Shown piece by piece: positions 1,218 through 52,250 of a DNA stretch of 64,000 nucleotides. The stretch comes from an uncultured Solirubrobacteraceae bacterium (GTDB taxonomy: Bacteria > Actinomycetota > Thermoleophilia > Solirubrobacterales > Solirubrobacteraceae), in NCBI GenBank assembly GCA_963728465.1, contig CAVSJY010000007.1:25090-89089 (forward strand), read 5' to 3'. Position 1 is the first letter of the stretch; each line of letters starts with the position of its first letter. The notes under the pieces are model-generated. The model did no database searches. It was not told the origin of the DNA and saw nothing but the letters and a program-made list of their open reading frames with translations. Both the position numbers and the translations under genes were made by a program.

Positions 1218-2209
<992 letters not shown>

Positions 2210-2222
<13 letters not shown>

Positions 2223-3118: not shown

Positions 3119-3182
3119 GCGCCTGAGTCTAGGTGCCAGTCCCCGGAAGTACGGCGCATCGGCCGGCGGCGTCCGGGTCGTG

Positions 3183-3246: not shown

Positions 3247-3305
3247 TGCGGGCCGGGCCCGCCGGAATGCGTCGTAATTTCGGGGGCTGGTACTAGGCTC
3301 CGGGC

Positions 3306-27000: not shown

Positions 27001-27035
27001 TGGTCACGGACCGGCTGGCCTGGCGGCGGCGCGGG

Positions 27036-27323: not shown

Positions 27324-27339
27324 GCGGTCAGGGTACCCG

Positions 27340-28181: not shown

Positions 28182-28205
28182 CGGGCGCGCCACCCTAGCG
28201 AGGCC

Positions 28206-28249
28206 GTGGGCTGCTTTGTGGGGTGCTATGCCCTCGGAAAACCGCCCAC
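28206..28249 (+). repeat. left arm of a 44-bp imperfect inverted repeat
   Basis: GTGGGCTGCTTTGTGGGGTGCTATGCCCTCGGAAAACCGCCCAC matches the reverse complement of 29107..29150 at 39 of 44 positions (hand alignment). Confidence 0.7.
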
Positions 28250-29140: not shown

Positions 29141-29150
29141 AGCCGCCCAC
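29107..29150 (-). repeat. right arm of the 44-bp imperfect inverted repeat
   Basis: It is the reverse complement of 28206..28249 (39 of 44). It contains the first 11 codons of the DUF559 gene. Confidence 0.7.
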
Positions 29151-29207
29151 GCTCGAAGTTCGCCCCCGCCGCGCCGGGTTTGTCGTACCTCGGCCATAAT
29201 CCGGCGC

Positions 29208-33628: not shown

Positions 33629-34004
33629 TCAGCCGGCCAGCGCGGAGATGCGCCACTCGTCGTCGACCCGCTGCGAGCTCGACGACGTCCTGCGACGGCT
33701 CCTGCCCGGCCGCCGACGTGCGCACCTCGGCCTTCGCCCGCTCGCCGTCGACGGTGATCTTGCCGATCGTCAGCCGCGGGTCCTGACGTCCCGAGCGCCT
33801 GCTGCAGCGCGACCTCGCACGGGCAGGCCGACCTGCTTGAGCTGTCGGGATCAGGCTGGGGCGAGGATGCGGTCGCACAGCGCCTGGTAGTCCTTGGCCT
33901 CGGTCGCGCGACCGAGGTCGGTCACCGTCGTCGCGGACCTGCTCCTCGTCGCTCGGCCCGGAGCCGCCGCAGCCGGCCAGCGCAGCGCAGCGGCGAGCGC
34001 GCAC
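33629..34004 (-). pseudogene. small lipoprotein (NTF2/DUF4878-like), frameshifted
   Basis: GTG at 34004 gives MRARRCAALAGCGGSGPSDEEQV (lipobox). Later pieces in other frames are TTVTDLGRATEAKDYQALCDRILAP and LTIGKITVDGERAKAEVRTSAAGQEPSQDVVELQRVDDEWRISALAG. Confidence 0.5.
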
Positions 34005-34017
34005 GCAGCGCGCCGCC

Positions 34018-34853
34018 TCACCGCGGCTCCTGCCCGTAGTCGCCGAACGGCGCGTCGCGGGCGGCCACCGCGGCGCGGACGTCGTCGGCCGCCGCGCGCG
34101 TGAAGGCGAGGCCCTCGGGCGTGTGCCGGGCGGCGCCGTCGAGCAGCGTGCCGATCAGCTGCGGTCGTGTCGAGCCCCATCTGCTCGTAGGCCTGGTTGA
34201 CGAGCAGCTTCATCATCTGCAGCTGGTTGGCGGGCAGCTGCGCCACGCGCCGCGCCAGCGCGCAGCGCCGCGCCGTCAAGCTCGGCCTCCGGGTGAGCCT
34301 CGGAGGCGAGGCCCCACGCGACGGCGGTCGCGCCCGTCGAGCGCGTCGCCGGTGAGCAGCAGCCGCTTGGCGCGCTCGAGCCCGAGCCGGTAGACCCACA
34401 TCGCGGTCGTCGGCGATCCCCACACGCGCGCCGGCGGGTAGCCGATCCGGCAGTCCTCGGCGCACACGATCAGGTCCGAGCACAGCGCGAAGTCGGTGCC
34501 GCCGCCGACGCAGTGCCCGTGCACCTGGGCGATCACCGGCTTGGGCGAGCGCCACAGCCGCATGTAGGCGCGCACGAAGCGCGACATCATGCGCTGGTCG
34601 GCCATCGGGTCCCACGGCCTCGCCCTCGGCCTCCATCGCGCCCGCGCCCCACTCGATGTCGTAGCCGGCGCAGAAGGCGCGGCCGGCCCCGCGCAGGCGG
34701 ACGGCGCGCACCGCGTCGTCGGCCTCGGCGCGGTCGAGCGCGGCCTCGAGGTCGTCGACCAGCTCCGGCACGATCGCGTTGAGGCGCTCCGGGCCGATCC
34801 AGCGTGAGCGTCGCGACGGCCCCGTCGAGGTCGTAGCGAACCGTGGCGCTCAC
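34018..34853 (-). pseudogene. enoyl-CoA hydratase/isomerase (crotonase) family protein, with at least 3 apparent frameshifts
   Basis: The pieces are VSATVRYDLDGAVATLTLDRP, LRGAGRAFCAGYDI, PVIAQVHGHCVGGGTDFALCSDLIV, ERAKRLLLTGDALDG and QLPANQLQMMKLLVNQAYEQMGL, found in three frames. Confidence 0.75.
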
Positions 34854-35479: not shown

Positions 35480-36415
35480 CTACCGGAGGTCGAAGCGGCC
35501 GATGCGGCCCTCGTCGCCCGACGCGTACCAGAGGTCGCCGCCTGGCCCGATCGTGATCGAGTCCGGCGCGCTCTTCGTGCGGACGTCGGGCCCGAACACG
35601 CCGCCGGGCGCCATCGAGCCCAGCGTGCCGGCCGAGTGCTGGCCGATCCACAGCGTGTCGCCCGCGAACGCGAGGCCGAGCGGGTCGGCGTTCGCGGTCG
35701 GCAGCGCGTAGCGCGCCGTCACGATGCCCTGAGTCGTCATCCGCGCGATCGCGTTGGTGTCGCGCTCGCCGACGTACAGCGCGCCGTCGCGGCCGGCGAC
35801 GATCGGACCGGGGAGCGTCCCGGCCGGCAGCGCGTACTCGGTGATGGCGCCGTCGGTCGTGATGCGGCCGACCTTGTCGCCGAGCGCCTCGCTGAACCAG
35901 AGCGCACCATCGGGGCCGACGGTGATGTCGGAGGCGAACGCGTCGCTCGTCGGCAGCGGGTACTCCGTGACGTCGCCCGCCGTGGTGATCCGGCCGATGC
36001 GGTCGCCGTGCGCCTCGACGAACCACAGCGCGCCGTCGGGACCGGAGACGATGTCGGTCGGGAACGAGCCGGGGTTGTGCAGCGCGTAGGCGGTCACACG
36101 GCCGCCGGCCGTGACGCGCAGGATGCGGTCGTCACGGTCGGTGACCCACAGCGCGCCGTCCTGGCCGGTCGTGACACCGGCCGGGGTGCCGCCGAGCTGC
36201 ACGAACGAGACGTTGCCCTTGGCCGAGACGCGCCACAGCCGGCCGAGGCTGCCGTCGGGCGCGTACACGGCGTCATCCGGGCCGGCGGCGATGTCGCTGG
36301 GCACCGCGAGCTGGTCGAGCTTGTACTCCTTCGCGCCTGCGACGCCGCTCGACGCGAGCGTGGCCGCGGCGACCATCGCCAGAACGGCGAGGACCCTGCG
36401 TGGGGTGAGCTTCAT
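35480..36415 (-). CDS. secreted beta-propeller protein, streptogramin-lyase (Vgb)-like repeats
   Basis: The 311-aa intact ORF has a signal peptide. It also has about 6 repeats of the pattern GPDGALWF.E...D.IGRIT..G.VTEY.LP. Confidence 0.75.
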   Translation of the reverse strand: MKLTPRRVLAVLAMVAAATLASSGVAGAKEYKLDQLAVPSDIAAGPDDAVYAPDGSLGRLWRVSAKGNVSFVQLGGTPAGVTTGQDGALWVTDRDDRILRVTAGGRVTAYALHNPGSFPTDIVSGPDGALWFVEAHGDRIGRITTAGDVTEYPLPTSDAFASDITVGPDGALWFSEALGDKVGRITTDGAITEYALPAGTLPGPIVAGRDGALYVGERDTNAIARMTTQGIVTARYALPTANADPLGLAFAGDTLWIGQHSAGTLGSMAPGGVFGPDVRTKSAPDSITIGPGGDLWYASGDEGRIGRFDLR

Positions 36416-36476
36416 GAAATGGGGGCTCCGGGGGGATCGGGGAGGATCGTTGAGGCTGCAACCAATCGGCTACTTT

Positions 36477-36528: not shown

Positions 36529-38838
36529 CTAGCTCCCCAGGCGACGGAACAGCAGGTAGGCGACCGCCGCCAGGCCCGCGGCGATCAGCGCCACCAGCGG
36601 ATACACGACCGGCACCAGCGTGCCGCCCAGCGCGGCGAGGCCCGCGGCGACTACGTAGGCGGCGCCCGCGGCGACCACGGTGAGCGCCGCGACCCAGGGA
36701 CGAGCCCCCGCGAACGCGAGTCCGCCGGGGACGAGCGCCAGCATCAGGATGAGCGCCACGTCCAGGGCCGTAGGCGACTGCTTCACGGGCAGCCCGCGCC
36801 GCAGCGTCGAGATGGCGTTGGCGTGGACCTCGACCCCCGGCATCACGCGGCCGCCGTCGCCCCGCGTCGGGTGGAGATCGCCCTGCGCGCGTGCCGACGT
36901 GCCCACGACGACGATCTTGTCGGCGAGGTCGGGCACCGCGCCGTCGAGCACGTCGGTGAAGCGGACGGTCCGGAACGTGCGGGCCGGACCGGCGTAGTCG
37001 ATCACCGCGCTCTCGAAGTCGACCGCCTCGTCGCCCGCGATCTCGGAGGCGACGACGGGCAGGGTCGCGAGCCGGCTCGACTCGGGCTCCAGGCGCGCCA
37101 GGCCGGACTGTCCGACCGAACGGTCGAACTTCAGGTACGCGCCGTCGGGGTACCGCGGGAAGCCCGCGAACGCCGCGTCGGGCGCCTTCACGCCGTCGCC
37201 GAGGACAAGGCCCCTGCCCTGGTCGTCGACGAGCGTCGCGGCGAGCACCAGCCACCCGTGCGCCTCGCGGATCGCCTCCCGGAGCTGCCGATCCCCCGCC
37301 CCGGGCTCCCGGAACTCGAAGTCGTAGACGATCGCGGCCGGCGCGGCGTTCAGCAGCGAGCGGATCAGCTGCGCGTGACGGTCGCGCGGGATCACGTCGC
37401 GGCCGCCGCCGAGCTGCGCCAGCCCCTCGTCGTCGAGATCGACGACCACGATGTCCGGGTCGGCGGCCGGCGTCCCGCGGAGGTCGAAGCGGGCGTCGAC
37501 GGTCCGCAGCTCGCCGCGCTGGAGCCATTCCGGCTCGGCGGCGCGGAGCCCCAAGCCGAGGACGAACGCCGCCAGGACGCCGGCGAGGATCGCGACCCTC
37601 GTGAGCTTCGCCCGCTGGCGGTCGGCGTGCCAGCGCGCCTGCCAGTCGAGCACGGGCTGGCAGAGCACGTCGTGGAACACCTCGTAGCTCGGCGCGTCGT
37701 CGACCGGGCGCAGGATCCGCGCGTCGTCCTCGGACAGCGCCTCCAGCGGCGGCCCGATCTGCTCCTCCGTGGCCCCGGTGACCTTGGCCAGGTCCGTCCG
37801 GCGCTGGGCGACCTTGGCGCCCGACGGCGTCACGAGGTAGTGGAACGCCCCGGCCATCAGGCGCTGCTCGCTCGCGCCGAGGCGGTCCATGTTCTCGCGC
37901 AGGTGCTCGGCGACGATCTCGCGCACGCCGCCCATCTCGCGCAGCGTCGCGATGCGCAGCGTCGCCGACCCCTGCGCCGCCTCGCGGTCCCACAGGCGGC
38001 GCATCACGAGCTGGAGGTACGCCGGCTCGATGCCGTCCTGGGCCGCCGCGCCGCCGCGCGCACGGCCGGCGAACGGCTCGGGCGCGTGGAGCAGGTCCAG
38101 GACGTGCTCCGCCAGCCCGTCCTCGGCCTCGACCTGGCGCTCCGGGTGCAGCTCCCGGTAGAGGCGGATCGGACCCTCGATCGCCTCCTCGGCGTGCTCG
38201 TCGGTCATCGGCCCGACGCGCAGCAGGTTGTCGAACGGCCGCGCGGCGGCGCCCTGGAAGCGGTCGAGCTGCGCGAGCGCGTCCTCGCGCAGCGAGATCA
38301 CGACGCGCGCCCGCACATGCGGGTCGGACAGCGCGACCGGCAGCTCGCGGGCGAGCGCGTCGGCGGCGCCCGGGTGGTAGAGGAAGTGCTCCTCGAACTG
38401 GTCGAGGACGAGCATCAGCAGCGCGTCCATGCGCTCGCCGTACGCCTGGAGGGCGTCGGCCAGCGGCAGGTCGGCCGGCACGGGGTCGGCGCTGCCGCCG
38501 TTCGCGCGCGCCGCCAGCTCGCGGTCGAGCGCCCCGCGGATGGCCGTCAGCGACTCCTCCTTCCAGCTGTCGACCAGCACCACGACCCGCTCGCTGCCGC
38601 CGGGGGCCACCGGCGCCCGGTCGCGGACCTCGGGCACCACGCCGGCCCGCAGCAGCGAGCTCTTGCCGACCCCGCTCGGGCCGTAGACGACCGTCAGGCG
38701 GGAGCTCAGCAGGTTCGCGACGATCAGGTCCCGCTCGGGCTCGCGGCCGAAGAAGAACGGCGCGTCGCCCTCCTTGTACGGCGCGAGGCCGGGGAACGGC
38801 CGCGCCGCGCCGGCGGCTTCAGCGGGCGGGGCGGCCAT
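36529..38838 (-). CDS. STAND-type P-loop NTPase (nSTAND-like) fused through a TM helix to an extracytoplasmic CHASE2 domain and three C-terminal TM helices
   Basis: This is an intact 769-aa ORF. The N-terminus is PFPGLAPYKEGDAPFFFGRE, Walker A is GPSGVGKSSLL (Lys codon 38662..38664) and Walker B is LMLVLDQFEE. The first TM helix is VAILAGVLAAFVLGLGL (aa 414-432). CHASE2 hallmarks are IVVVDLDDEGL...IPRDRHAQLI...IVYDFEFREP...MPGVEVHANAISTL (about 36784..37506). Three hydrophobic helices follow to the end. Confidence 0.85.
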   Translation of the reverse strand: MAAPPAEAAGAARPFPGLAPYKEGDAPFFFGREPERDLIVANLLSSRLTVVYGPSGVGKSSLLRAGVVPEVRDRAPVAPGGSERVVVLVDSWKEESLTAIRGALDRELAARANGGSADPVPADLPLADALQAYGERMDALLMLVLDQFEEHFLYHPGAADALARELPVALSDPHVRARVVISLREDALAQLDRFQGAAARPFDNLLRVGPMTDEHAEEAIEGPIRLYRELHPERQVEAEDGLAEHVLDLLHAPEPFAGRARGGAAAQDGIEPAYLQLVMRRLWDREAAQGSATLRIATLREMGGVREIVAEHLRENMDRLGASEQRLMAGAFHYLVTPSGAKVAQRRTDLAKVTGATEEQIGPPLEALSEDDARILRPVDDAPSYEVFHDVLCQPVLDWQARWHADRQRAKLTRVAILAGVLAAFVLGLGLRAAEPEWLQRGELRTVDARFDLRGTPAADPDIVVVDLDDEGLAQLGGGRDVIPRDRHAQLIRSLLNAAPAAIVYDFEFREPGAGDRQLREAIREAHGWLVLAATLVDDQGRGLVLGDGVKAPDAAFAGFPRYPDGAYLKFDRSVGQSGLARLEPESSRLATLPVVASEIAGDEAVDFESAVIDYAGPARTFRTVRFTDVLDGAVPDLADKIVVVGTSARAQGDLHPTRGDGGRVMPGVEVHANAISTLRRGLPVKQSPTALDVALILMLALVPGGLAFAGARPWVAALTVVAAGAAYVVAAGLAALGGTLVPVVYPLVALIAAGLAAVAYLLFRRLGS

Positions 38839-39777
38839 TGCCGAGCCGCTCCTCCAGCTGGGCGACGTACGCGGCCAGCGGCTGCTCGAAGATGTCGACC
38901 TGGCGGTGGTCCCAGACCTGCCGGTCCAGCGGGTCGACCTGGAGCTGGATCGCCCACGCCGGGTAGGCGACGTCGCGCCGCGACCAGAGGTCGCGCAGCA
39001 GGACGCGCAGGTTCCAGTCGACGAGGCTGTAGCCGAGGAACAGCATCGCGCTGTTGACCAGGTGCACCAGCAGCTTCTTCGGCACGAGGCTCTCGAGGTC
39101 CGTGGTGGCGAGGAAGTCGATGTAGTGGTCCTCGCTGATCACGTAGTAGTCGTTGAACGCGCGGCGCTGCGCGCGGTCGACCGCGCCGTGGACCTTCAGG
39201 ATCACGGACTGCTCGTCGAGCCAGGATCGCGTGTCCTCGCCGGGCTTCTCGATCAGCTCCGGGTCGCCGGTCCCGCCCCGCGCACCCAGCAGCGCCCTTC
39301 GCGCGTGGCGCGGTAGTAGATCGTCGAGAACGGCTCGCCGGCCGCGTCGTAGGCCTGCTCGAGCGCGTCGTCGTAGTTCGTCGTCAGGACGAGCTGGTGC
39401 TGCCCCGTCCGCGCCGGCAGGGCGGCGAGGAAGCGGTGCACCGTGGTCGGGCCGTATTCGGCGCCGAACACGTCGTGCAGCGAGTCGCGCAGGAACGCCT
39501 CGTCCTTGAGCTGCGCGAACTGCGCGACGCGCAGCAGGTCGCCGCGGTCCCGCGGCCCTCGGGGTAGTGGTGCTCGTCCGCGAGCAGCTCGGCCAGCTCC
39601 GCGCCGTTGGGGAGGTTGTGCCCGCGGACGTACGTCTCGTCCTCCGCGCGGTCGGACAGGTTGGCGCCCGCGCCGAGCAGCGTGACCAGCCCGCCGCGCT
39701 CGAGGTTGCGCAGCACCTGCCTGTAGTGGTCCTCGGTCGGGCTGGAGCGCCTGGACGCTCATCGCGGCGCGCCTCAT
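38819..39777 (-). CDS. SIR2-like (SIR2_2, defence-type NADase fold) protein, with at least 2 apparent frameshifts (near 39735, 39560 and 39290)
   Basis: The pieces are LVTLLGAGANLS, QLVLTTNYDDALEQAY, ILKVHGAVDR (His codon 39188..39190) and MLFLGYSLVDWNLR. The ATG at 39777 overlaps the upstream stop (ATGA). The 3' end overlaps the STAND gene by 20 nt. Confidence 0.75.
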
Positions 39778-40327
39778 CGGCGGACAGGCCCGCTGCGGCC
39801 GGCGGCGGAGCGTCGCGCCGGGCTCTTGCGGCGAGGTAGCAGCGGCCGGCGCGGACGTCGACGGTCCGGCCGCCGCCGGTCCGTCACGACGACGAGCCCC
39901 TCCTTGACTTTGAAGATCGTGCCGTCGCAGCGGTCGCGCACCGTCCAGACCGTGCCGCGGCCGGACCCGCGCCCGTAGCCGCCGGCGCCGCGAAAGCCGC
40001 CCGCGCGAGCGGATCCGCATGGACGCCTCGTAGGGCAGCCGCGACGCCCGCGCCCTCTTGCAGCTCTGCGGGCCGCTGTCCAGGCGCAGCGTCGGCAGGG
40101 CGGCCGCCCCGTCGCCCTGCTCGACGGTGAACACGCCGCCGCGAACGAAGCCTGGCCGATGGTGCCCGGGCCGTCGGGCGTCGTCGTCACCGACTCGATC
40201 TCCACGGTCCCGCGCGTCGCGTCGATCGCCGTGTGCACGGGGACCTCGACCGCGGTCCGCAGGCGCGTCTGGAGCGCCGGCGGTCGACGGGGTCCTCCGC
40301 CGTGCCCGGGGCGACGAGTACGGGTCA
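39774..40327 (-). pseudogene. beta-rich secreted-protein module, either a separate ORF or the frameshifted C-terminal extension of the TolB-like protein
   Basis: The fragments are VLVAPGTAEDPVD, EVPVHTAIDATRGTVEIESV, FRGGVFTVEQGDGAAALPTLRLDSGPQSC and RGTVWTVRDRCDGTIFKVKEGLVVVTD, in at least 2 frames. I recall this pattern from C-termini of secreted proteins in related high-GC actinobacteria. Confidence 0.45.
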
Positions 40328-41242
40328 CCCGCCGGGCGCGATCGTGATGGTCTCGCCACGCTCCGGCGGCGCGACGGCGGGCGGGAGCGGCGCCCACGAG
40401 GGATCGCTGCCGGGCGCGACGGGCACGGTCCCGCCCTGGGCGCCGTCCGCGGGCATGACGTACAGGTAGTCGAACGGGACCGTGGCTGCGTATGCGATGC
40501 GCGTCCCGTCCGGCGACCAGGCGGGGAAGTGGTCGAACCCGAGCGAGTCGGCCAGCACGCGGCGGTTGCCGCCGGCGGCGTCGATGGCGTAGATGTCGAG
40601 GTCGCCGTCGTCCTCGTGCGTGTAGGCGAGCTGCGCGCCGTCGGGCGACCACGACGGGTCGGCGTCGAGACCCGGCTCCGTGGTCAGGCGCCGCAGCCCG
40701 CCGCCGGCCGGGTCGATCAGCCACAGGTCCATGTCGCCCGCCGCACGGCCGCTGGCGAACGCGATCGCGTCCCTGGATGACCACGCGGGCTGCTGGTCGA
40801 TCGCGGGGTCGAACGTGATGCGGGTCGGCAAGCCACCCGCCGCCGGCATGACGTAGAGCTCGGAGTTGCCGTCGCGCTCGCTCGCGAACGCGATCCGCGA
40901 GCCGTCCGGCGAGAACGCCGGGTCGTGGTCGCGGGCGGGGTCGGACGTGAGCCGGGTCTGGGCGCCCGTCTCCACGTCGAGCACGTAGATCTCCTCGTTG
41001 CCGTCGCGCGTGCTCGTGAACGCGAGCCGCTTCCCGTCCTGCGACCAGGCGGGGTCGCGGTCGGCGGGCCCGACCGCCACGAGGTCCGTGAGCGCGCCGG
41101 TGCCGTCCGCGTTGATCGTGGCGATCGCGGCGCCGGAGCGCTCGAAGGCGATCGGGCCGTTCGTCCCGGGGAACGCGGCCGAAGCGGGCGCCGCCGCGAC
41201 CGCGGCCACGAGCGCCGCCAGTGGGAGCGCCGCCGCCTTCAC
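40325..41242 (-). CDS. periplasmic TolB-like (PD40 / WD40-like) beta-propeller protein
   Basis: It comprises the last 305 aa of ORF 40325..44713. The GTG start at 41242 overlaps the upstream stop (GTGA). The signal peptide is VKAAALPLAALVAAVAAAPASA. It has repeated P.WSPDG..IAF.S.RDG..ELY motifs. Confidence 0.82.
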   Translation of the reverse strand: MKAAALPLAALVAAVAAAPASAAFPGTNGPIAFERSGAAIATINADGTGALTDLVAVGPADRDPAWSQDGKRLAFTSTRDGNEEIYVLDVETGAQTRLTSDPARDHDPAFSPDGSRIAFASERDGNSELYVMPAAGGLPTRITFDPAIDQQPAWSSRDAIAFASGRAAGDMDLWLIDPAGGGLRRLTTEPGLDADPSWSPDGAQLAYTHEDDGDLDIYAIDAAGGNRRVLADSLGFDHFPAWSPDGTRIAYAATVPFDYLYVMPADGAQGGTVPVAPGSDPSWAPLPPAVAPPERGETITIAPGG

Positions 41243-44200
41243 CGGCCGACCGTAGCCTGCGTCGAGAAGAGCCGGAACAGCGGATCCCCGTAGTGCTGGT
41301 ACGCGCCCCACGACCGCGCGCCGCCGCCGCTCGCGCCGGCGACCTCCTCGCGCGCGCCGCTCATCGCCTTGAACATCGGCTGCGGCTCGTCGGATTGTCC
41401 GAGCAGTGACCGGTAGAGCGTCGTCGCGAACAGGCGCGCCCCGTGGTCGTCGACCGGCCACGCCGTGCAGACGAAGTTGCCGACGCCGCGCGCGAAGAAC
41501 GACTCGGCGAAGCTCGGCGCCAGCGCTGCCGACCGCCGGCCCGAGCGGTCCGGCGTGATGCCGGACTCGCACGCGTTGGAGAACACGAACTCCGGCACCC
41601 GGTCGATCCGGCGCAGCTCGCGTGCCGCGATCGTCTGGCCGCCGGTGAAGATCCAGCCGGACCCCGCCGGGTCCTTGGCGTCGTAGAAGCAGTGGCCGGC
41701 GAAGTGCAGGACGTGGAAGCGCTTGAGGATGAGCTGCTCCAGGACGGCGGTCCGCGTCGCCTCGCGCGGGCCGAGCAGCGCCACGACCTCCACCCGCGGC
41801 GGCTCGCCGGCGCGGTTGGCCTTCTCGAACAGCTCCGCGACCTTGATCCCCTCCTCCTCGGCGCCGGGCAGGTGGGCGTCCTCGGCCGGGTCGGCGATGA
41901 CGAGCACGCGCAGCAGGCGCTCGGGCGGGGGCGGCGGCTCCGGCGGCGGCGCGAACGCGGTGCGCAGCTGCCGCGTCACCGCCGCGCCGATGCCGAGGTG
42001 CGAGTTCAGCCAGTCGGGGCTGTCCTCGGGCGTGGTGCTCGGCATCGCGTCCGCGCGCGTGACGAGCTCCCAGTGGATCCGCGCCGTCGTCGAGTCGAGC
42101 ATCAGGATCACCGGCGAGCCGCTGAGCTGCGGGCCGAGGTCTCCGGGGAACAGCAGCCGCGACAGGTAGCGGCCGTGCTCGCGGCGCCGGGTCGCGTCCG
42201 GCTCGGCCGCGAGCTGGTCGTTGGCCTCCTTCACGAGGTTCGGGTCGAGCGGGACCTCGCGCTCCGGGATCGCCGCCTTGGCGGTGATCGCGCCGAAGCG
42301 ATACGTCGCCCCCTCGCGGGTGATCGTGATGCGGGCGGGGGCCTGCTGCGTCTTGTGGTCGCGCTCGGCGCCCTCGCGCCAGCGCCGCCTGGCGGCCTCG
42401 AGGTCGGTGGCCAGCGCGCGCCGGCGCCACTTCTCCTTCGTCGCCGCGTCGGCGGGCGTGTAGCGGGCGATCAGCCGCTGCTCCTCGGCCATCCGGCGCT
42501 GCGCCACCCCCAGCGCCTCGTCGATCTCGTGCAGCCGGCGCGCGTCGAACTCCACGAACGTCACCGCCCGCACGGCCGAGTCGGCGATCTGCCCGTTGAG
42601 CGCCTGCGCGATGCCCCGCATCCAGGCCGTGATCGCGTCGGCCGGCGGCAGGTTGCCGGTGCCCGCGCCGATCAGCACCGCGGCGACGTGGCGGCGCCCG
42701 ATGCGGCCCGCCGCCCAGCACAGCTCGCGGGCCACCAGCGTCAGCTCGCCCGTGCCGAAGCGCCCGGGCACGCCCATGCCGGCGAGCATGATCAGCCTTC
42801 CGCCCGCGCGGCGGCGGGGGTCGGGCAGGACGAACGGCTGCCCGAGCTGGCCGGTGATCGTGCCGCGCAGCGACAGGTGCGCGATCAGTCCCTCGTGCGG
42901 CAGGCCGGCCGGCGCGCCCCGCGGCGCCGCCTCGCTGAGCGCGAAGTCGAGCGCGGCCTCGGCGGCCTGCGGCTGGACGCCCTCGTAGTGGCCGACGGCG
43001 ATCACGTCGGGCTTGAAGCCCGCGAGCGCCGGAGCCGTGTGCGCCTGGCCGACGTTGCCGTTCCAGAGCCCGATCTCGATCGCGGGCGGCTTCGCCTTGC
43101 GCACGGGCCGGCCGCCGCCGGGCTCGGTCTCGCCCGCGGCGGGCCGGAGGCCGAGCCAGTCGCGGACCACGAGGTCCTCCACGTGGCGCTCCTGCTCGCT
43201 GACCGCCACGGGCGCGGAGGCCGGCGGGTCGCCGCGGCCGAGCGTGCCGTCGTCGCGCGACCCGAGCCGCCGCATCGACTCGCGCATGCGGGCCTCGTCC
43301 TCCGCCGCCTCGCGCTCCGCGGTCGCGCGCAGCGACGCCGGATCGCCGCCGCCGCGGCTCGCGGGCGGCTTGGTCTTCAGGCGCTTGGTCCGGCCTCCGA
43401 GCAGCAGGTCGCCGACCGCGTCGAGGACGGCGGCGTCGCTCGTCAGCGCCCCGTGCGAGACCGGCGCGAAGTAGCGGGTGACGCCGGGCAGGTCGCCGAG
43501 CGCGTGTGGGACGCGGCCGTCGCCGTCGGTGCCGTACTGGTAGGCGGAGGGATCGCCGACGCCGGCCGTGTCGAGGCCCACCACCGTCCGCTGGCCGCTG
43601 CCCGCGACGGCCACCATGCGGGCCGGGTCGGCGACCGGCGCCAGCAGCTCGTGCACCGCCTTCGCCGCGTCGAGGTGGCGCTGGGACACGGCGGCGCCGT
43701 CGTACGTGTCCGCCAGGTACAGCGGCTCGGCGCCCGGCACGGCGGGCGAGGGCAGCATCTGGAACGTGCCGGGGAAGGTGTTGAGCACCTCGCGGACCTC
43801 CGCGAGCCCGAGCCGCAGGTCGGCCAGCGCCAGCAGCCGGACGTGCTCCTCCAGGCCGGCGATGCCGCGCGGCACGTCGTAGGAGCCCTGGTTCGGGACG
43901 CCGAGCATGATCAGCCGGCCGCCGCGCGGGCCGGGCTTGTCGGGCGACCCGTCGCACATCGCGGCCCACTGCTCGGGGTGGGCGGCGACGAACGCGCGCG
44001 CGACGAGCCCGCCCATCGAGTGCGCGACCAGGTGGACCGGCTCGGCGGGGAACCAGCGCTCGATCGCGGCGGCCAGCTCGTCCGCGCTCGTGCGCAGGTC
44101 CTTGCGCCAGTCGTAGGCGAACGCCTGCACGCGCCAGCGCTGGGAGAGGTGCATCAGCAGCTCGCCGTAGTAGCGCTTGAGGATGCCGGCCGTCTGCACG

Positions 44201-44614
44201 CGGCAGCCGGGGTCGCGCTCGCGCTCGCCGGTCGGGTCGAGCGCGAGGTTCGCCACGCCGCCGGAGATGAGCGGGAGCGCCTGGAGCCAGATCAGCGACG
44301 GGCGGTCGCCCTCCTTCTCCGCCGCGCGCGCCAGCGCGGCGCCCATCGAGCCGTGCAGCACCACGACGTTGCCGGCCGGCTCGGCCTCGCCGCGGGTGAG
44401 GTTGCGGTCCAGCGCCCGCTGGTGCATGCGCTGGTAGCGGTCTGCGCCCGAAGTACGCGATCAGGGCCTCCTGCTCGCGCACGCTCGGGCGCGCGAGCAG
44501 GCGGGCGAGCTCCTCCGGCCCGGCCGCCTCGACGGAGGCGATGAACTGCCGCTCATCCAGCTGCGCAGACAATGGTTCCGCCTCACCCGTTCGGTGTCCG
44601 GCCGACCCTGCCAT
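41239..44614 (-). CDS. multidomain protein: helical N-terminus, LCAT/PGAP1-like alpha/beta hydrolase, Macro/LAP-N-like middle domain, C-terminal CHAT protease; one apparent frameshift near 44440
   Basis: ORF 41239..44427 (1062 aa) is intact. The lipase part has FAYDWRKDL and the nucleophile elbow AHSMGG (Ser codon 44017..44019). CHAT has His in HFAGH and Cys in SNACESG (Cys codon 41569..41571). About 60 further N-terminal residues (MAGSAGH...QEALIAYFG) lie in the frame of ORF 40325..44713, from ATG 44614. Confidence 0.82.
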
Positions 44615-44699: not shown

Positions 44700-47600
44700 A
44701 TGGCGGAACACACGAGTGCAACCGACGTCCGGGACTTCGTCGTACCGGCGCCGGCTCAGGCGGAGATCCGCGACTTCGACTGCTGGGCGGTCGTGGTGGG
44801 CATCTCCAAGCACGCCGCCCCGGAGATCGACCTCCGCTACGCCGCACGAGACGCCCAGTCGTTCAGCGACGTGCTCCGCTCGCCGGACGCGGGCGGTTTC
44901 CGCGACGAGCGCCTGCACGTCCTCCTGGACCACGAGGCGACGACCTCGGGGCTCACCCACGCGTTCCGCACCGTCCTCAAGAAGCCGGCCCGCGAAGACC
45001 TCGTGGTGATCTACCTCGCCTGCCACGCGGTTCCGGATCCCGACCGCCCGGACAACCTCTACATCGTCACCCACGACACCCGGCCGGACGACATCTCGGG
45101 CACGGCGCTGCCCATGCTCGAGGTCCAGAACGCCATCAGGCGCACGCTGCACGCACGGCGCGTCGTCCTCCTCGCCGACATGTGCCACAGCGGCGCCATC
45201 GGCGACCGCTACGGGGCGCGGGCGGCCGCGGACCGGACGCACGTGGTCAACGCCTTCCTGCGCGGCGTCAGCGACGCGGGCGAGGGCATCGCGATGCTGA
45301 GCGCCGCCGAGGCCAACGAGGTCGCTCGCGAAGACAGGGAGCACGACAAGAAATGGGACGGGCACGGCGTCTTCACGCACTTCCTCCTGCGCGGGCTGGC
45401 CGGCGAGGCCGACCGCTCGCCGCGCGACGGAACCGTGACCGTCGGCGAGCTGTTCGACTACGTCCGCGAGCAGGTCCCCCTGGCCACCGAGAACCTCCAG
45501 CATCCCGCCATCGGCCCCGCGCGGTTCGATCGCGACCTCACGCTGGCGATCACCGCGTCGAAGCTCGCGATCGCCGAGCTCTCGCTGGGACGCGGTCTCC
45601 GGCACCTGGCTCAGCGCTGGGACGACGACGGCGTCTTCGCAGCCGCCGCTCGGCACCTCGCCGAGTCCGTCCGGATGTCCGAGCGCGTCGGCGGCGCCTC
45701 GGCCGACGTGTACGTCGAGCTCGCGCTCGCGCACCTCGCCACGAGTCAGCGATCACGGACCGACACGAACGCCGCGGGCAGGCTGCTTGCCGGCGACGAG
45801 CGCGACTCGGGCGGCTCGGCGGCTCGGCGGCGCCTCGCACGACGACTTCAGCGAGGCGCTGCGAACGCTCGCGGCGGCTGCCGCCAAGACGTCGGATCCG
45901 GCGGCGGCGGACGCCCGCTTCCATCTCGGGCTCGCATTCGCGAAGGGCGGCGACCGGGCGCAGGCCCGTCGAGCTCCTCGAGCAGTTCGCGGCGTCGTTC
46001 CCGGACGATGCTCGGGCGGAATGGGCGGGCTGGGCGGCGCGCGAGCTCCTCGCGCGAGCGGACGGCACCTCCGAGCTCGATCCCGTATGGCTGTACGAGT
46101 TCGCGGAGTTGAGGCCCGCGGCCGAGATCGCGCCAGCCGAGCTCGCGCGCCGACACGACCTGGTCGTCGAGCGCTGCCCGCCCTACCCGCAGCTCCAGCT
46201 CGCGTTCGGAAGGGCGCTCCAGCGGACGGCCGCGGAGACGCTCGCCGCGCCGCTTCGCGATCTCGTCGAGGAGCTCGACCGCCGCCTGGACGGCCCGGCG
46301 GGCTCGGGCGAGGACCTCTTCCATCGCGGCCTGGCCCGCGAGCTGCTCGGCGAACGCGACGCGGCCCTGGACGACCTCGAGCGGGCGAGCAGCTCCCAGG
46401 ACGGCAAGCGCCTGGCGAACGTGCACTACCAATACGCCCGCGCGCTGCGGGACAGCGGCGGCAACCTGCATCGCGCCCGGTCCGAGCTGGACATCGCGAT
46501 CGAGCTTGCGCCCGGGCACAAAGGCGCGCAACGACTGGGGCCGTTGATCGACGGAGCGCTCAGGGCCGCCGATAGAGCGCGCGAACGGGATGCCGCGCCC
46601 GGTCGCGAGCCGGGCTACGTCGCGGAGGACTCCGACGACATCCTCGGCTCGCTTGGCGGCTCGATCGTCCACGAGGAGCTGAAGGGCTGCCCCAGCCGCG
46701 CGGCCGCGCGTTCGGGGCCCGCGCTGGCGCGGGCGCGCGACGCTGGCGACGCCGCGGCCGTCGCGACGGCGCTCGCCGACCACGGCTCGCGCTCCTGCTC
46801 TGGGGCTTTCCCAGCGCCGCGCGCGAGCACCTGCTGGAGGCGATGCGAGTGGGTCCGCCCGCGACGGCGCTGAGGGCCGGCCTGTACGAGCGCCTCGCGA
46901 GCGCTGCCCGCTTCAACGCGTTCCCCGACGGGCAGGGCGCCGGCGCGGCGGAGATCAACGCCCGCTGGAACGCGATCGCCGACGAGAGCGCCGCCGCCGG
47001 GCGGCTCGAGCGCCTCGCGCAGGAGGCGGAGGGCTCACCGGTCCTCCAGCTCCGCCGCTGGACGAGGATCCTCGGGCTGCTGCCGCCGATTCGCAACACG
47101 CTCGAGCTGATGCGGACGATGCCCGACCCGCCGGCGCGATTCGTGGAGATGGCGCTGGCCGAGCTGCTCTCGCTGGAGGGCGACGACGACCGCGTCCCTG
47201 CGGCATGGACCGCCTACGCGCAGCTCGCGGCCGCCGACCTGTGCCGGCGCGGCGGCGAGCAGGAGCGCGGGCTCGCGCTGCTCGATCGCGCTCGCGACAC
47301 CTACGGCGCGGCGGGCGACCGCACAGGCGTGGGCGCCTGCCACCTGGCTCGCGGCGACTGGCAGGCCGCGCCGTTCAGCTCTCCGCTCAGCCTCAATCTC
47401 GCACTGCGCGAGAGCGCGTCGGAGGGCAGCGACCTCGACTGGCAGGTCGAGGAGGCGGAGTTCAGCCTGGCCGGCGCCGACCTGGATGCGGCGCGGGCCG
47501 CCTACGACGCGGCCGAGGAGGCCTTCGCGGGCGCGGGCGCGGGCCGCGGCCTCGCCGCGGTCGAGCTGCGGCGCGGCTATCTCGACGTGCTCGCCGACGA

Positions 47601-50307
47601 CCATGCCGCGGCCCGCCGGCGCTGCCGGACGGCGATGTTCGCGTTCCTCGCCGAGGGCGATCACGTCGGCTTCCAGCTCGCCTCCATCCACGCGGCGCTC
47701 GCCGCGATCGGCGCCGGGGCGTTGAACGAGGATCGTACCGCGGCCGCCGGCGCGGGCGGCTGGGGCGCCGGCGACGGCAGCTTCAGCCTCGCGCTCGGCC
47801 TCGGCCTGCTGTGCGGGCGGGCCGGCCGGCACTGGCGGCTCCGGCGCGGCGACGCCGAGCGGGCGCTTGCCTGTCACCGCCTCGCGGGATCGCTGTACGA
47901 AGCGCTCGGCGCGCGGCTGAACCTCGCCCAGAGCCTGGTCGACCAGTCGGACGTGCTGCGCTGGGTCGGCGACGCCGCCGGGGCGACCGTCGCCTACGAG
48001 CGCGCGGTCGCCGCGACGGCGGAGTCGTCCGGCGCCGTCGCGCGCAAGCGCGGGCTGCTGCTCGCGACCGAGGTCGCGCAGCTCCACCACGCGCGCCAGG
48101 ACGCCGACGGCATGGAGCGGGCCGCGGCGCAGCTGCGGGAGCGGCTCGAGGCGTTCGACCCCGGTTCGGAGCCCGACGGGCAGGCGATCGCGACGCTCGC
48201 GGCCGACCAGCTGTCCGGGCTCCCGGCGGCGATCCCGCTGGCGCGCGCCATGGCGCTCCGCGAGGCGGGCCGGATGGAGGAGGCGGCGCCGCACTTCGCC
48301 GAGGCGCTGGCGGCTACGCGCGAGTCCACCACCGAGCAGCGTCCGCTCCTCGAGGCGTCCGTGCTCGGCTCGCAGGAGCGCTATGCGGAGGCGCTCGAGG
48401 CGTATCGGCGCTACGCCGCGCTGCGCGACGGGGACGCCGGCACCGCCGCGACGCTGGCGCGCGTCCTCGGTCCGGCGCAGGTCGCACGCTTCCGGCGCCA
48501 GGCGCTCGAGCAGAACCTGGCGTTCTTCACGCGCGTGAAGGCGTGGGAAGGGGCGCGAGAGGCGGCGAACGAGCTCGAGGAGCTCGGCGGCGCCGAGTGG
48601 TGGCAGGACGACGAGCGCCCGTGGGCGATGCTCTCCGACCTCGGCGAGGTGGCCGAGGGGCTCGGCGAGCTGGAGCGCGCGCTCGACCGCTACGAGCAGG
48701 CGTTCGACGCGTACGAGGCGCGGCGCGGGCTGCTCGGCCGGCGAGGGGCTGCGGACGGCCCTCGGCGCGTCCAAGGACGTCCAGTGGCTCGGCGTCCTCT
48801 CGGCGCGCTGCGCGCTGCGGCTGGCCGATGCCGGCGATCCGACGGGGCTCCTGCGCGCGTTCGCGCTCGCCGAGCGTGGCAAGGCGCGCGTGCTGCTGGA
48901 CCTGATGGCGCGGAGCGCCGCGCGCAGCAGCGGGCGGCTCGGCGAGCCGCCCGCCCGCCGCCGCTGGCGCGAGCTCGGCGCGCGCGGCGGACGTCTCCGC
49001 CCAGCTGCTGAGCCGCCACCGCGCGACGGGCGCCGAGGAGGTCTCCGCCCTCGAGCAGCGGCTGCGCGCCGACCAGGCCGCCCTGCGCGACGCGGAGGAG
49101 GAGCTAGCGCGCTCGGACCCGGCGTGGCTCGGCGGCATGCGCGCGACCGGCGAGGTCGCCCCGCTGGAGGAGGTCGCGGCGGCCGTGCCCGCGGGCGCGG
49201 CGCTGCTCCAGTGGGTGTTCCTCGGTCACGACCTGCTGGCGTGGGCGATCACGCGCGACGGGATGGTCGCGCACGCCCGCCGCGAGCTCGACGCGCGCGC
49301 GCTGGGCCGCGCGATCCGCGAGCTGCGCACCGCCTGCGAGTCCCGCGCCGGCGACTGGGAGCGGCGCGCCGCCGAGCTCGCGGACCCGCTGCTCGCGCCG
49401 TTCGCCGGCGTGCTCGCCGACCACGAGCGCGCTGATCTTCGTGCCCTACGGCGTCGCCCACGAGCTGCCGCTGCACGTGCTGCCGTTCGAGGGCGTGCCG
49501 CTCGCGGCCACGCACACCGTCTCGACGCTCCCGAGCGCGAGCGTGCTGCCGCACCTGCGCGGCGGCGGCGCGCGACCGTGGCGGGTGCTCGCGGTCGGCA
49601 ACCCGGCACGGATGAGCCACCGGCCGCCGGGCGCCGCGCGCGCGGCGCCCGCGGCGCCGCTGCGCGGGGCGGAGCTGGAGGCCGAGCTGGCGGCCGCCGC
49701 GTTCCCCGGCGGCGTCGCGCTCACCGGTGAGGCGGCGACCGAGCCGGCGGTGCGCGAGCGGCTCGGAGAGTTCTCGATCCTGCACCTCGCCACCCACGGC
49801 ATCCTCGACCAGGAGGCGCCCGGCATGTCCGCCGTCCTGCTCGCCGACGGCGAGGCGCTCAGCGTCTACGAGCTCGCCGGCCTCGAGCTCGACGTCGACC
49901 TCGCGGTGCTGAGCGCGTGCCGTACGGGCCAGGGCGAAACGACGCGCGGCGACGACGTCGTCGGGCTCGCCCGCGGGCTGCTCGGCGCGGGCTGCCGCGC
50001 CGCGGTGGTCAGCCTGTGGCCCGTCGACGACGCCTCGACGACGCTGCTCATGGCGGCGTTCTATCGCGAGCTCCAGGGCGGCGCCGGGCCGGCGGACGCC
50101 CTGCGGGCGAGCGCGCTGCACGTGCGCGGGCTCAGCCGGGCTGACTCCGCGGCCGAGCTCGTGGAGCTGCGCCCGGGCGTGGCAGAGGGCGCGCGCGACA
50201 TCCTCGGCCTGCGGAGCGCGGACGCCGCCGCGGGCTATGACCACCCGTACCACTGGGCGCCGTTCGCGCTCGTCGGCACGGGCCTGACACGAAGGGACAC
50301 CCCATGA
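44700..50307 (+). CDS. caspase-like peptidase C14 + long TPR/helical-repeat array + C-terminal CHAT domain. Reads as one ~1870-aa protein if ~6 apparent frameshifts are bridged; alternatively two genes split near 46843
   Basis: C14 has His in VIYLACHA (45024..45026) and Cys in ADMCHSGA (45183..45185). The helical repeats run through the frames of ORFs 45787.., 44594.. and 46843..49011. CHAT is in ORF 49441..50307, with His in LHLATHG (49795..49797) and Cys in LSACRTG (49918..49920). At 46790 the text reads through (ATALADHG|LALLLWGFPSAARAHLLEAM). Confidence 0.7.
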
Positions 50308-52250
50308 GCGGACGCCGCCTGGCGCTGCTCGTCGGCATCGACGAGTACCCGAACCTTGCGCCCCGCGCAGCAGCTCCAGGGGCTGCGTCAACGACGCGGA
50401 GCTGATGGCCGGACGTGCTCACGAGCCGGTTCGGCTTCCACGAGGCGGACATCACGCTGCTGCGCAACGCCGAGGCGTCGCGCGACGGCGATCCTGGCCG
50501 CCTTCGACGAGCTCGTCGACGACGTCGACGCCGGACGACGTGGTGCGTCGTGCACTACAGCGGCCACGGCTCGCAGATGACCGACCGCGAGGGCGACGAG
50601 GCGGACGGGCTCGACGAGACGATCGTGCCCGTCGGACTCCGGTCGCGCGCACGGCGCCCGAACCGCGACATCACCGACGACGAGATCTACGACTGGCTGA
50701 CGCGGCTGACCGCCAAGACGCAGCTGGTCACGCTCGTCTTCGACTGCTGCCACTCGGGCACGGTCACGCGCGACGTCGTGCGCGGCGCGCACGTGCGGCG
50801 GATCGAGCCGGACCTGCGCCCGCCGGAGGAGCTGCCGCCGTCGCCGGTCGCCTCGCGCGCGGCGACGCGCGGCGCCGGGCCGAGCGGCTGGCTGCCGCCC
50901 GGGCGGCGCTACACGCTGATCGCCGGCTGCCGCGACGAGGAGCTCTCGCACGAGCACGACACGCCCGACGGCGCCGACGCACGGCGCGCTGACGTGGTTC
51001 CTCACGCGCGCGCTCAGCGACCGCGCGCGCCGGGCGCGACCTACCGCGACGTGTTCGAGCCGGCCGCGCTCGGCGTCACGACGGCTGTACCCGAGCCAGC
51101 ATCCGCAGATCGAGGGCGCGATCGACCGCGAGGTGTTCGGGGTCGCGGAGCGCGAGCCGGAGCGCGTTCGTGCCGGTCTGGACGCGCGCGCGGCGACGGC
51201 GTGACGCTCGGCGGCGGCGCCGCGCAGGGCGTGGCAGGTCGGGTCGCGCTGGGGCGTGTCGGCGACGGCGACGAGGCGCCGGTCGGCATCGCTGCGCGTC
51301 ACCGCGGCGCGGGCGACGACGGCGACGGCGAGGTCGTCGAGGAGATCGCGGCCGAGCGATCGCGGCGCCGGCGCGCGCGGCGTTCGCGGACGGGCGGCAC
51401 CCGGCGGCGCCGCGGCTGCGCGTCGCCGCTCGCCGGACGAGCTGGCCGAGCTGGCCGAGCTCGATCGACGCGCACGTCGCTCGAGCTGCGTCGAGCGCGG
51501 ACGACGGGCCGACGCGCGCGTGCTGGTCCTCGGGCCGCGCGACGCGGTCGGCGGCGGACGACCCGGTGCCGCAGCTCGGGCCGCTGACCGAGCCGACGGT
51601 CGCGGTCGTCGGCGCGCGACGGGCGCCTGCTGCTGCCCCGGCGCAGGCCGGCGAGCCGGCGCGCGCTCGCAGCAGGTGCGCGACGACCTCGAGACGTCGC
51701 GCGCTACCGGCGGCGTGCTCGCGCTCGAGAACCCGGGCGGGCCGCTCGCCGGCGCAGGTCGAGCTGACGCTGCTGCGCCGCGCCGCCGACGGCAGCGTGG
51801 GTCGGCGCGAGCCGGAGGCGGCGGGCGGCGAGGTCGTCTACGAGGCCGGCGAGCCGATCGGCATGCGGATCACAGAGCCTGCACGACGCGCTCGCTCTAC
51901 CCGGCGGTGCTCGACCTCGGGCTCGCCTACGCGCGTCGAGCATCGCCGCAGCCGTACGCGGGCAAGGAGGAGCTCGAGCCGCGGGCCGCGGTCGAGATCG
52001 GCACCCGGCCGGGCGAGGAGCTGCCGCTCGGCTTCCCGGACGCGTTCCCGTTCGGCGGCGACGCCGACGACGACCGACAGCGGCATCGAGACGGTCAAGC
52101 TGCTCGTCGACGACGCGAGCCGGCCGACTACACCGTCGCTGCTGCAGGCGGGCGTGACGCGCGACTTCGCGCGCCGGCGCCGCAAGCCGGCGGCGACTGG
52201 GGCGCGGTGACGCGCAGCTTCCGGCTGCGCAAGCCGACGACGGCGGTGCC
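50304..52250 (+). pseudogene. second caspase-like peptidase C14 protein with a beta-rich (DUF4384-like) C-terminal region; at least 8 apparent frameshifts, 3' boundary uncertain
   Basis: The ATG overlaps the preceding stop (ATGA 50304..50307). The pieces are LALLVGIDEYPN, GCVNDAELMA, VVHYSGHGS (His 50565..50567), DGLDETIVP, NRDITDDEIYDWL and VFDCCHSGT (Cys-Cys 50745..50750). Later pieces are VELTLLRRAADGS..GEVVYEAGEPIGMRIT and GGDWGAVTRSFRLRK. Confidence 0.7.

Follow-up and report, generated by a model that had tools for sequence, protein, structure and literature searches.

A single gene on the minus strand of a contig from an uncultured Solirubrobacteraceae bacterium (CAVSJY010000007.1, assembly GCA_963728465.1) encodes a product of ~1,124 residues that joins an LCAT-like hydrolase, a Macro-fold domain and a CHAT protease in one chain. 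The gene lies in a 64,000-nucleotide stretch of this contig (positions 25,090 to 89,089), referred to here as the window, and all coordinates below are those of the window. Three folds were recovered in the protein, its two catalytic sets are conserved among homologues, its Macro and CHAT domains form a modular unit, and its relatives are repeatedly linked to SIR2_2, nSTAND1 and caspase genes. We favour, with moderate confidence, the reading that the gene encodes a cytoplasmic, single-chain executioner, a regulated protease-lipase, of a bacterial conflict system, serving immunity or programmed cell death, in which the signal would pass from nSTAND1 to SIR2, from there to the Macro domain and finally to CHAT; the parts of this reading that we infer are which ligand is bound, in what order the events run and which substrates the protein acts on.

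The main open reading frame (ORF) of the gene starts at an ATG and comprises 1,062 codons on the minus strand (41239..44427, with the stop codon inside the end coordinate; public-record annotation P0001). It is uninterrupted, with a single frame uniform over its whole length and codon-position GC values of 0.76, 0.54 and 0.98 (third-position GC, GC3, 0.98), as in real genes of such genomes; the G+C content of the window is ~75%. It is not a chance ORF, since more than 1,000 homologues were found at E ≤ 1e-5 and the best 120 of them are near full-length at 44-60% identity. The motifs quoted in the original prediction, which had been made from the window's letters and ORFs (FAYDWRKDL, AHSMGG, IEIGLWNGNVGQAHT, RLIMLAGMGVPGRFGTGELTLVARELCWAAGRIG, VAAVLIGAG, HFAGH and SNACESG), are all present in the translation, the codon positions it named for mutants are correct for Ser137 (44017..44019) and Cys953 (41569..41571), and its description of an essentially intact ORF with a single N-terminal shift was confirmed, as the coding signal changes frame upstream of ATG 44427. 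The frame that opens at ATG 44614 reads MAGSAGHRTGEAEPLSAQLDERQFIASVEAAGPEELARLLARPSVREQEALIAYFG and breaks off at a GGG run at 44447-44449, and removal of one G from this run results in the continuous reading ...YFGADRYQRMHQRAL...; at the shift, ttc ggg c gca gac is observed where ttc ggc gca gac (F G A D) is expected. The surplus G in the run (44447..44449, minus strand) falls where homologues read YFG[EGA]DRY, and the first 56 codons (44447..44614, minus strand), a conserved helical mini-domain without a match to any Pfam family, are in a frame other than that of the main ORF here and in frame in homologues. The consensus of 52 full-length homologues with the N-terminal segment in frame is DERAFI..VEAA..ELA.LLSRPT..EE.L..YFGEDRY.RMH, and because homologues carry this segment in frame, the extension was taken to be real, giving a protein of 56 + 1,068 = 1,124 amino acids.

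Frame jumps of strong same-strand coding signal occur window-wide, especially at 26000-34700, and 68 candidate junctions were counted, ordinary gene overlaps among them. Such a pattern points to an assembly prone to indels and not to decay limited to the island of caspase, CHAT, STAND and SIR2 genes in which the target lies and, because frame switches are frequent across the whole window, the frameshift at 44447-44449 is likely an assembly indel. No signal peptide or transmembrane segment was apparent in the target sequence or in its AlphaFold2 (AF2) model.

The CHAT caspase-like protease occupies residues 696-1062 (41242..42342, minus strand). Pfam CHAT (PF12770) matched at 90.6 bits against a cutoff of 24 (E 1.6e-25), with residues 752-1048 spanning the whole model, and Foldseek returned Csx29 as its top structural hit (E 1.4e-9) as well as separase and gingipain R, placing the domain in the caspase-hemoglobinase fold. 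Conservation of catalytic and invariant residues was scored over 53 full-length homologues, and both members of the catalytic dyad, His912 in HFAGH (41692..41694) and Cys953 in SNACESG, are present in all 53. The CHAT assignment first made from these two motifs is thus supported by profile, fold and dyad conservation. An invariant poly-proline loop, FAPPPEPPPPP (residues 825-835, 41923..41958), precedes the first CHAT core strand and is predicted to be disordered, with a predicted local distance difference test score (pLDDT) <50, yet it is ~90% conserved.

At the other end of the main ORF, residues 1-350 (43378..44427, minus strand) form an LCAT/Tle4-like alpha/beta-hydrolase with a DWR motif and an AHSMGG elbow. 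In the full-length AF2 model (mean pLDDT 84, predicted template-modelling score, pTM, 0.55), this domain has a pLDDT >90, and Foldseek matched it to the type VI secretion system (T6SS) phospholipase Tle4 (4r1d_A, E 2e-7) and to human LCAT (6mvd_A, E 2.4e-6, TMt 0.61), with the bacterial lipases LipA and LipC12 as further structural neighbours. The catalytic triad consists of Ser137, Asp303 (43519..43521) and His325 (43453..43455), all on the minus strand, the latter two assigned from where they fall in the AF2 secondary structure; 51 of the 53 homologues retain Ser137, the other two having Ala, and all of them retain Asp303 and His325. Conservation of lipase and protease catalytic residues in orthologues, on which the original prediction had staked its inference of two destructive activities, was therefore borne out. 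Pfam LCAT (PF02450) matched the window protein at 24.6 bits (cutoff 21) with only model positions 87-148 aligned, and homologues at 27-31 bits over model positions 83-203. Pfam PGAP1-like (PF07819) reached 18 bits, below its cutoff of 24.3, and aligned only 21 residues at the elbow. The lipase assignment originally proposed is supported by the LCAT profile, more weakly than that of CHAT, and by fold. Generic alpha/beta-hydrolase families gave weak matches around the AHSMGG elbow. On its modelled fold, the domain is a probable membrane-lipid esterase.

Two other affiliations of the hydrolase were considered and rejected. Pfam DUF7379 (PF24096) scored 16.2 bits for the target and 22.9 bits for the best homologue, both below the cutoff of 33, and the target was not filed under this family because BLASTP likeness to a DUF7379 hydrolase reconstructed from the window was confined to the elbow region (E 0.006). 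A role as a T6SS effector, raised by the similarity to Tle4, was rejected, since T6SS genes are absent and some phyla that have the family lack a T6SS. The hydrolase is followed by a poorly conserved linker (residues 351-444; 43096..43377, minus strand), delimited from the conservation profile and AF2, that consists of a long helix and two disordered stretches (pLDDT <50 at residues 393-407 and 431-444) and contains a small conserved ER..E helix at residues 411-421. The same hydrolase type was also seen on Paracoccus yeei plasmids, in a 1,789-aa CHAT protein, and on a Qingshengfaniella plasmid, where the gene bears the annotation of a trypsin-like peptidase.

Between linker and protease, residues 445-660 (42448..43095, minus strand) make up a Macro-fold domain of the leucine aminopeptidase (LAP) N-terminal type. 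Pfam Peptidase_M17_N (PF02789) matched 7 of 24 scanned family members, with a best E of 2.5e-5, the window protein itself scoring 13.5 bits, below the cutoff of 23.4, and a family profile run against PDB sequences gave as its top match the N-domain of an M17 aminopeptidase (3jru), at a weak E of 0.033. An AF2 model of the isolated domain (pLDDT 89, pTM 0.88) was matched by Foldseek to PepA and other leucine aminopeptidase N-domains first (E 1.3e-7, TM up to 0.64) and then to macroH2A, PARP14, Af1521 or its derivatives, and viral and bacterial macrodomains, with E of 1e-7 to 1e-6 overall, a probability of 1.0 and target-normalised TM of 0.6-0.78 for isolated macrodomains. On the Pfam, PDB-profile and Foldseek results taken together, the middle domain is assigned, as modelled, to the three-layer alpha/beta/alpha Macro fold of LAP-N type. 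This call, which the original prediction had rated the weakest of its parts and for which it had proposed an HHpred or Foldseek search, is accordingly supported. Neither an unrelated fold in the middle region nor a loss of catalytic residues among orthologues, the two outcomes it had named as fatal to it, was encountered, because a Macro fold was found and the catalytic sets are conserved.

Invariant arginine and glycine-loop residues are the only indications that this domain may bind ADP-ribose or a related nucleotide. The residues invariant among homologues are G479, Y481, R521, D536, R538, R544, R567, E568, W571, G587, G589 and E626; four invariant arginines were reported among its features together with the glycine-rich loops AGMGxPGRFG and IGAGxGNL. 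By secondary-structure mapping, without superposition, the two loops would sit where macrodomains hold the diphosphate. Mean column identity is 55% in this domain against 49% overall, so that it is at least as conserved as the enzyme domains. A profile of the domain retrieved 725 proteins at E ≤ 1e-3 from 1.84 billion representatives and no ordinary LAPs, indicating that this type of Macro domain is private to the target family.

The family is widespread but undescribed, being absent from PADLOC and from the literature searched, in which no description of the architecture or of the three-gene arrangement treated below was found. Relatives at 41-49% identity occur in 176 of 185,579 species representatives, patchily and over ~10 phyla, including Acidobacteriota, Verrucomicrobiota, Gemmatimonadota, Chloroflexota, Actinomycetota (Rubrobacteraceae, Solirubrobacterales), Myxococcota and Planctomycetota, with further relatives in Binatia, Nitrospinota and Gammaproteobacteria. 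The names given to homologues by their sources are only 'CHAT domain-containing protein' and 'pimeloyl-ACP methyl ester carboxylesterase'; NCBIfam held nothing useful for the target, and no match was found in a phage collection. About 20 of the best 150 matches to the Macro profile are 600-740 aa long and begin at the first Macro strand, and two of these, P0126 (L085, 1157-3142) and P0139, are complete genes inside contigs that contain Macro and CHAT only and no hydrolase. Because such hydrolase-less versions exist as complete genes, the sequences identify Macro-CHAT as the conserved unit and the lipase as a common but optional N-terminal module, which most members, the target included, have fused by a flexible linker together with the small helical domain. 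The three-domain architecture originally taken as a whole is therefore conserved in its Macro-CHAT core, and the lipase is not a fixed part of it. Among the other variants, P0194 adds a C-terminal PLD domain to hydrolase-Macro-CHAT, P0138 places an nSTAND1 NTPase in front of a copy of the family member, and a version with ~500 extra C-terminal residues was also seen (variants P0126, P0139, P0194 and P0168). The contig of P0139 also encodes a 1,083-aa patatin protein a few genes upstream. P0054 (1,399 aa) has the peptidoglycan-related LysM and SLT domains ahead of the hydrolase, an unusual feature in a cytoplasmic effector that may stem from a gene-call fusion.

The genes surrounding family members were surveyed by clustering the flanking ORFs of 84 loci without prior labels. 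The largest neighbour families were nSTAND1 (16), a Peptidase_C14 caspase of ~275 aa (16) and SIR2_2 (15), and in 15 of the 84 loci, SIR2_2 and nSTAND1 together adjoin the target family on the same strand. Among the 63 loci with 2.5 kb or more of downstream flank, 13 have SIR2_2 immediately downstream, with gaps of 67-265 bp, and nSTAND1 after it; of the remaining two of the 15, one has the pair upstream and the other, the window, has a PD40 gene interposed. The 15 loci come from Chthoniobacterales (Verrucomicrobiota), Pyrinomonadaceae and other Acidobacteriota, Rhodothermales and the window, and two more SIR2_2 neighbours were found in a Pfam scan of the remaining neighbours. L072 and L041 are examples of three-gene loci, which include the Chthoniobacter and Pyrinomonadaceae types. 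The SIR2 and nSTAND1 partner proteins are 40-47% identical to those of the window, about as conserved as the target, which argues for the three genes moving as a set. The catalytic motifs GAG, TTNYD and HG are intact in the SIR2 partners, and the sensors of the nSTAND1 proteins vary among WD40, TPR and CHASE2, as expected for STAND receptors. Three independent observations add weight to this association. In the first, the hydrolase-less P0139 likewise has SIR2_2 and then nSTAND1 downstream.

The second comes from locus L084. An active copy (3-3188) and SIR2_2 (3240-4256) are followed there by P0138 (4253-9154), in which nSTAND1 is fused to a whole second copy of the family protein that is catalytically dead (Ser137->Glu, His325->Asn, Cys953->Val) and has also lost the Macro invariants R521 (to Trp) and E568 (to Asn); this is a single example. 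In the third, a relative with 30% identity, a 1,028-aa 'CHAT domain-containing protein', is present in L086 (5788-11250) on plasmid p1 of Rhizobium leguminosarum GLR17 (NZ_CP071627.1), where mini-domain, hydrolase, Macro-like domain and CHAT follow in the same order (Macro-like region E 1.3e-9 against the family hidden Markov model) and the next genes encode a SIR2 family protein and a non-specific endonuclease; the pair on this plasmid is recorded as WP_168302769.1 plus WP_246764484.1. Small caspases form the other recurrent association: in 8 loci, from Rubrobacteraceae, Thermomicrobiales, Binatia, Chloroflexia, Solibacteraceae and Caldilineaceae, one is the immediate upstream neighbour on the same strand, and 16 loci have one within 6 kb. 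The caspase loci and the SIR2 loci do not overlap, the window excepted, and no recurrent partner was seen in the other loci.

No dominant family emerged as a third universal partner among the 47 other same-strand neighbours, which showed only lineage synteny (LpxA-like genes), and TIR genes were sporadic, being found in L001 and L002 only. In 10 loci (L001, L015, L017-L019, L022, L030, L041, L042 and L065), largely on Pyrinomonadaceae/Blastocatellia-type contigs, a divergent gene 400-830 bp upstream of the family member encodes a zinc-ribbon radical-SAM protein of ~655 aa; being divergent and lineage-confined, it probably reflects synteny and was set aside as a partner. A shared adaptor domain of the EAD type between the target and nSTAND1 or SIR2 was also considered and rejected, as the N-termini of nSTAND1 and SIR2 start directly with NTPase and Rossmann motifs.

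Taken with published systems, these links suggest the following course of events for the executioner. The nSTAND1 ATPase would detect an invader or stress through its variable sensor (CHASE2 here, WD40 or TPR elsewhere) and would switch on the SIR2 NADase. The Macro-like domain would then register SIR2 activity, most likely by binding an NAD+-derived product, e.g., ADP-ribose, and would release the CHAT protease, which it directly precedes in the chain, the position held by SAVED and TPR sensors in other CHAT proteases. The freed protease could cut cellular targets, the adjacent caspase and/or its own linker, and a cut in the linker would license the lipase, as for caspase-associated alpha/beta-hydrolase zymogens, so that the cell dies or arrests. 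Published work offers precedents: type II Thoeris effectors sense His-ADPR through their Macro domain, and in type IV Thoeris a TIR-made ADP-ribose (ADPR) derivative, N7-cADPR, activates a caspase-like protease (10.1101/2024.10.24.620036); CHAT proteases are under N-terminal sensor control, and SAVED-CHAT activates a neighbouring PCaspase (10.1101/2023.06.23.546230; discussion of 10.1101/2024.10.24.620036); the caspases of conflict systems have an alpha/beta-hydrolase as companion (Kaur et al. 2020, PMC7159879); and the caspase-associated alpha/beta-hydrolase is a zymogen that becomes toxic after two caspase cuts (Evans et al. 2025, 10.1101/2025.11.14.688446).

A bolder form of this proposal would make Macro-CHAT a new protease class fired by a SIR2 NAD+-breakdown product of the ADP-ribose or O-acyl-ADPR type, with the nSTAND1 that carries the dead copy serving as an integrated decoy or docking platform. 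We put it forward only tentatively and consider it unlikely as a whole; if true, NAD+ depletion by SIR2 would become a second-messenger pathway that fires a protease-plus-lipase executioner. Plant NLRs carry integrated decoys, and it is to these that the dead-copy variant of nSTAND1 is likened.

A number of observations weigh against the executioner reading. Pfam Macro (PF01661) matched none of the 24 scanned members even at E ≤ 10, and the canonical N-x6-GGG motif was not seen in the Macro-like domain in a by-eye reading made without a formal test. The same reading found D-x-I-A-V-G-H-Y in the strand-loop where the macrodomain consensus, N-A-A-N...G-G-G, would be expected. The middle domain resembles the LAP N-domain most, whose known roles lie in oligomer contacts and in binding DNA and not ADP-ribose. 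The pTM of the full-length AF2 model leaves the inter-domain geometry uncertain, and in PADLOC-DB v2, 0 families matched the target protein at E ≤ 0.01. The proposed coupling to SIR2-derived NAD+ breakdown products finds support in the recurrent adjacency and the fusion in a subset of loci (15 of 84), but about three quarters of the loci lack an adjacent SIR2 and many have housekeeping neighbours only; because all members share one set of Macro invariants and SIR2 is often absent, a SIR2 product cannot be the sole trigger. In the window itself, a secreted PD40 gene and ~600 bp part the target from SIR2, which elsewhere are adjacent, and both genes carry frame switches, so that function in this genome is not assured.

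The resemblance to LAP N-domains, which provide both the best structural and the best sequence matches, together with the missing canonical ADP-ribose motifs, leads to the main alternative, in which the effector role is kept and the Macro-like domain serves oligomerisation, as it does in M17 hexamers. CHAT would then be fired by proximity on an nSTAND1 oligomer, in the style of an apoptosome, with SIR2 as a parallel effector and not as the origin of the signal. Caspase-family proteases are classically activated by dimerisation, which suits this alternative, and a dead whole copy in the sensor place of nSTAND1 could nucleate active copies, much as dead caspase paralogues pair with live ones, so that the dead-copy fusion fits assembly at least as well as it fits a sensor. 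The details of that same copy point the other way, since it lost R521 and E568 (R521W, E568N) while its fold was kept; because a catalytically dead copy lost both, these residues appear tied to activity rather than to assembly. The invariant arginines and glycine loops also look more like a ligand site than an interface, copies standing alone without a STAND neighbour predominate, and no adaptor domain is common to the target and nSTAND1. Whichever of the two models holds, the many solitary copies show that an adjacent SIR2 cannot be the sole trigger. We therefore regard assembly as a credible minority explanation that is doubtful on present evidence.

Two further explanations question the conflict role or its integrity in this genome rather than the sensing step. 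The gene may be a decaying pseudogene, the frameshift being real and the locus, with its SIR2, TPR-CHAT and DUF7379 genes, no longer functional, as the number of frameshifts might suggest (SIR2 has two against one in the target, TPR-CHAT has one or more and the DUF7379 hydrolase four or more). This is improbable given that frame switches also occur outside the island, at 26-34 kb, that GC3 is at least 0.9 in every fragment and that the shift in the target falls inside a homopolymer, all of which fits assembly indels; the 1,062-aa product from ATG 44427 would, moreover, still carry all three domains. An ordinary enzyme outside any conflict, e.g., for envelope lipid or protein processing, with incidental neighbours, would agree with the many loci in which LpxA-type acyltransferases, ABC transporters or Sua5 are neighbours, with the source annotation as a pimeloyl-ACP methyl ester carboxylesterase and with the LysM and SLT domains of P0054. 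It is very improbable in view of the patchy spread over species representatives, the repeated tight same-strand linkage to SIR2_2, nSTAND1 or caspases and the gene fusion, the island of caspase, CHAT, STAND and SIR2 genes in the window itself, and the lack of any apparent signal peptide or transmembrane segment.

Comparison with characterised systems places the target among several of them and inside none: it belongs neither to SAVED-CHAT, Craspase or Thoeris nor to the described caspase-hydrolase pairs, because it fails the DUF7379, PGAP1 and canonical Macro profiles and has no PADLOC model. By analogy, it probably works like a blend of the four. With SAVED-CHAT of type III-B CRISPR and with TPR-CHAT/Csx29 (Craspase), it shares a CHAT domain with an N-terminally fused regulatory domain, and just as SAVED-CHAT acts on an adjacent caspase, small caspase genes adjoin the target family in 8-16 loci; unlike them, it has a LAP-N-type Macro domain, no CRISPR context and a lipase-like hydrolase in cis. 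The pairing of a caspase-superfamily protease with a lipase-like hydrolase is also that of the caspase and alpha/beta-hydrolase zymogen modules of STAND-type systems, but the target joins both in one chain with the Macro domain between them, and its hydrolase is LCAT-like and only weakly DUF7379-like. As in type II and type IV Thoeris, a Macro fold is the putative reader of an NAD+ product and an NAD+-consuming enzyme stands beside a caspase-family effector, whereas here the neighbour is SIR2_2 and not TIR, the Macro domain is LAP-N-like without canonical motifs, and the effector domains differ.

Similar likenesses and differences hold for the individual parts. The N-domain of M17 leucine aminopeptidases (PF02789; PepA 1gyt, PA14 LAP 8pz0) is the closest relative of the Macro-like domain in both fold and sequence, and in M17 LAP as in the target, a Macro-like domain and a long helix are followed by a peptidase domain; in the target, however, that peptidase is a cysteine CHAT protease and not a metallopeptidase, and the Macro domain has the IGAGxGNL loop. 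LCAT/LPLA2 and the PGAP1-like T6SS effector Tle4 share with the hydrolase the fold, the (F/Y)DWR motif, the GxSxG elbow and the Ser-Asp-His triad, but the target is cytoplasmic, fused to a protease and without T6SS genes nearby. SIR2-STAND defence systems such as Avs5 likewise couple a SIR2 NADase to a STAND NTPase with variable sensors, whereas SIR2 and nSTAND1 are separate proteins here and a third gene, Macro-CHAT, is attached. Sensor-fused CHAT proteases, protease-licensed hydrolase toxins and Macro readers of NAD+-derived signals were each described only lately and apart from one another, and the target family unites all three. Should a SIR2 product be what the Macro-like domain reads, SIR2 defence would gain a signalling output beyond NAD+ depletion, and LAP-N-type Macro domains would gain a ligand-sensing role. 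Clear targets for point mutants are S137, C953, R521, R538 and R567, and the Rhizobium leguminosarum GLR17 plasmid provides a cultured relative.

In the window, the putative partner genes SIR2_2 and nSTAND1-CHASE2 lie downstream of the target on the minus strand. The PD40/TolB-like beta-propeller gene (40325-41260), whose product is secreted and has a signal-peptide-like N-terminus, lies between the target and SIR2 and is followed by ~600 bp of unclear coding (39716-40325). The SIR2_2 gene (38819-39716), of the NADase type and a putative partner, was matched by Pfam SIR2_2 on two pieces and can be read only by way of three frames, which change near 39205-39270 and 39510-39570; its catalytic motifs GAG, TTNYD and KVHG are present. 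An nSTAND1-CHASE2 gene, the putative sensor partner (36529-38838; Pfam nSTAND1 E 1.1e-47, CHASE2 E 5.2e-35), has a start that overlaps the SIR2 stop and bears a membrane CHASE2 sensor in place of the usual WD40 propeller.

Upstream of the target, on the plus strand, a divergent caspase gene that is a possible proteolytic partner (44700..46112; Peptidase_C14 E 1.9e-8, PADLOC caspase E 3.4e-9) lies 85 bp from the target start. Beyond it, a TPR-rich ORF (46843-49011) and a CHAT ORF (49441-50307, Pfam E 2.6e-55) are both encoded on the plus strand and look like one TPR-CHAT gene, 46843-50307, split by at least one frame switch; the CHAT half of this gene was the only paralogue of the target's three domains found in the window. 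A second caspase (Peptidase_C14, 50415-51587, plus strand) is followed by the DUF7379 hydrolase (~52600-53700, plus strand), which was reassembled from at least four or five frames (Pfam E 1.6e-53, 182 bits), and by their sequences the two (50415-53700) are a separate caspase-hydrolase pair of the published kind. On the minus strand, a virginiamycin B lyase-family beta-propeller (35480-36469, Pfam E 1.4e-111) is encoded directly downstream of nSTAND1-CHASE2.

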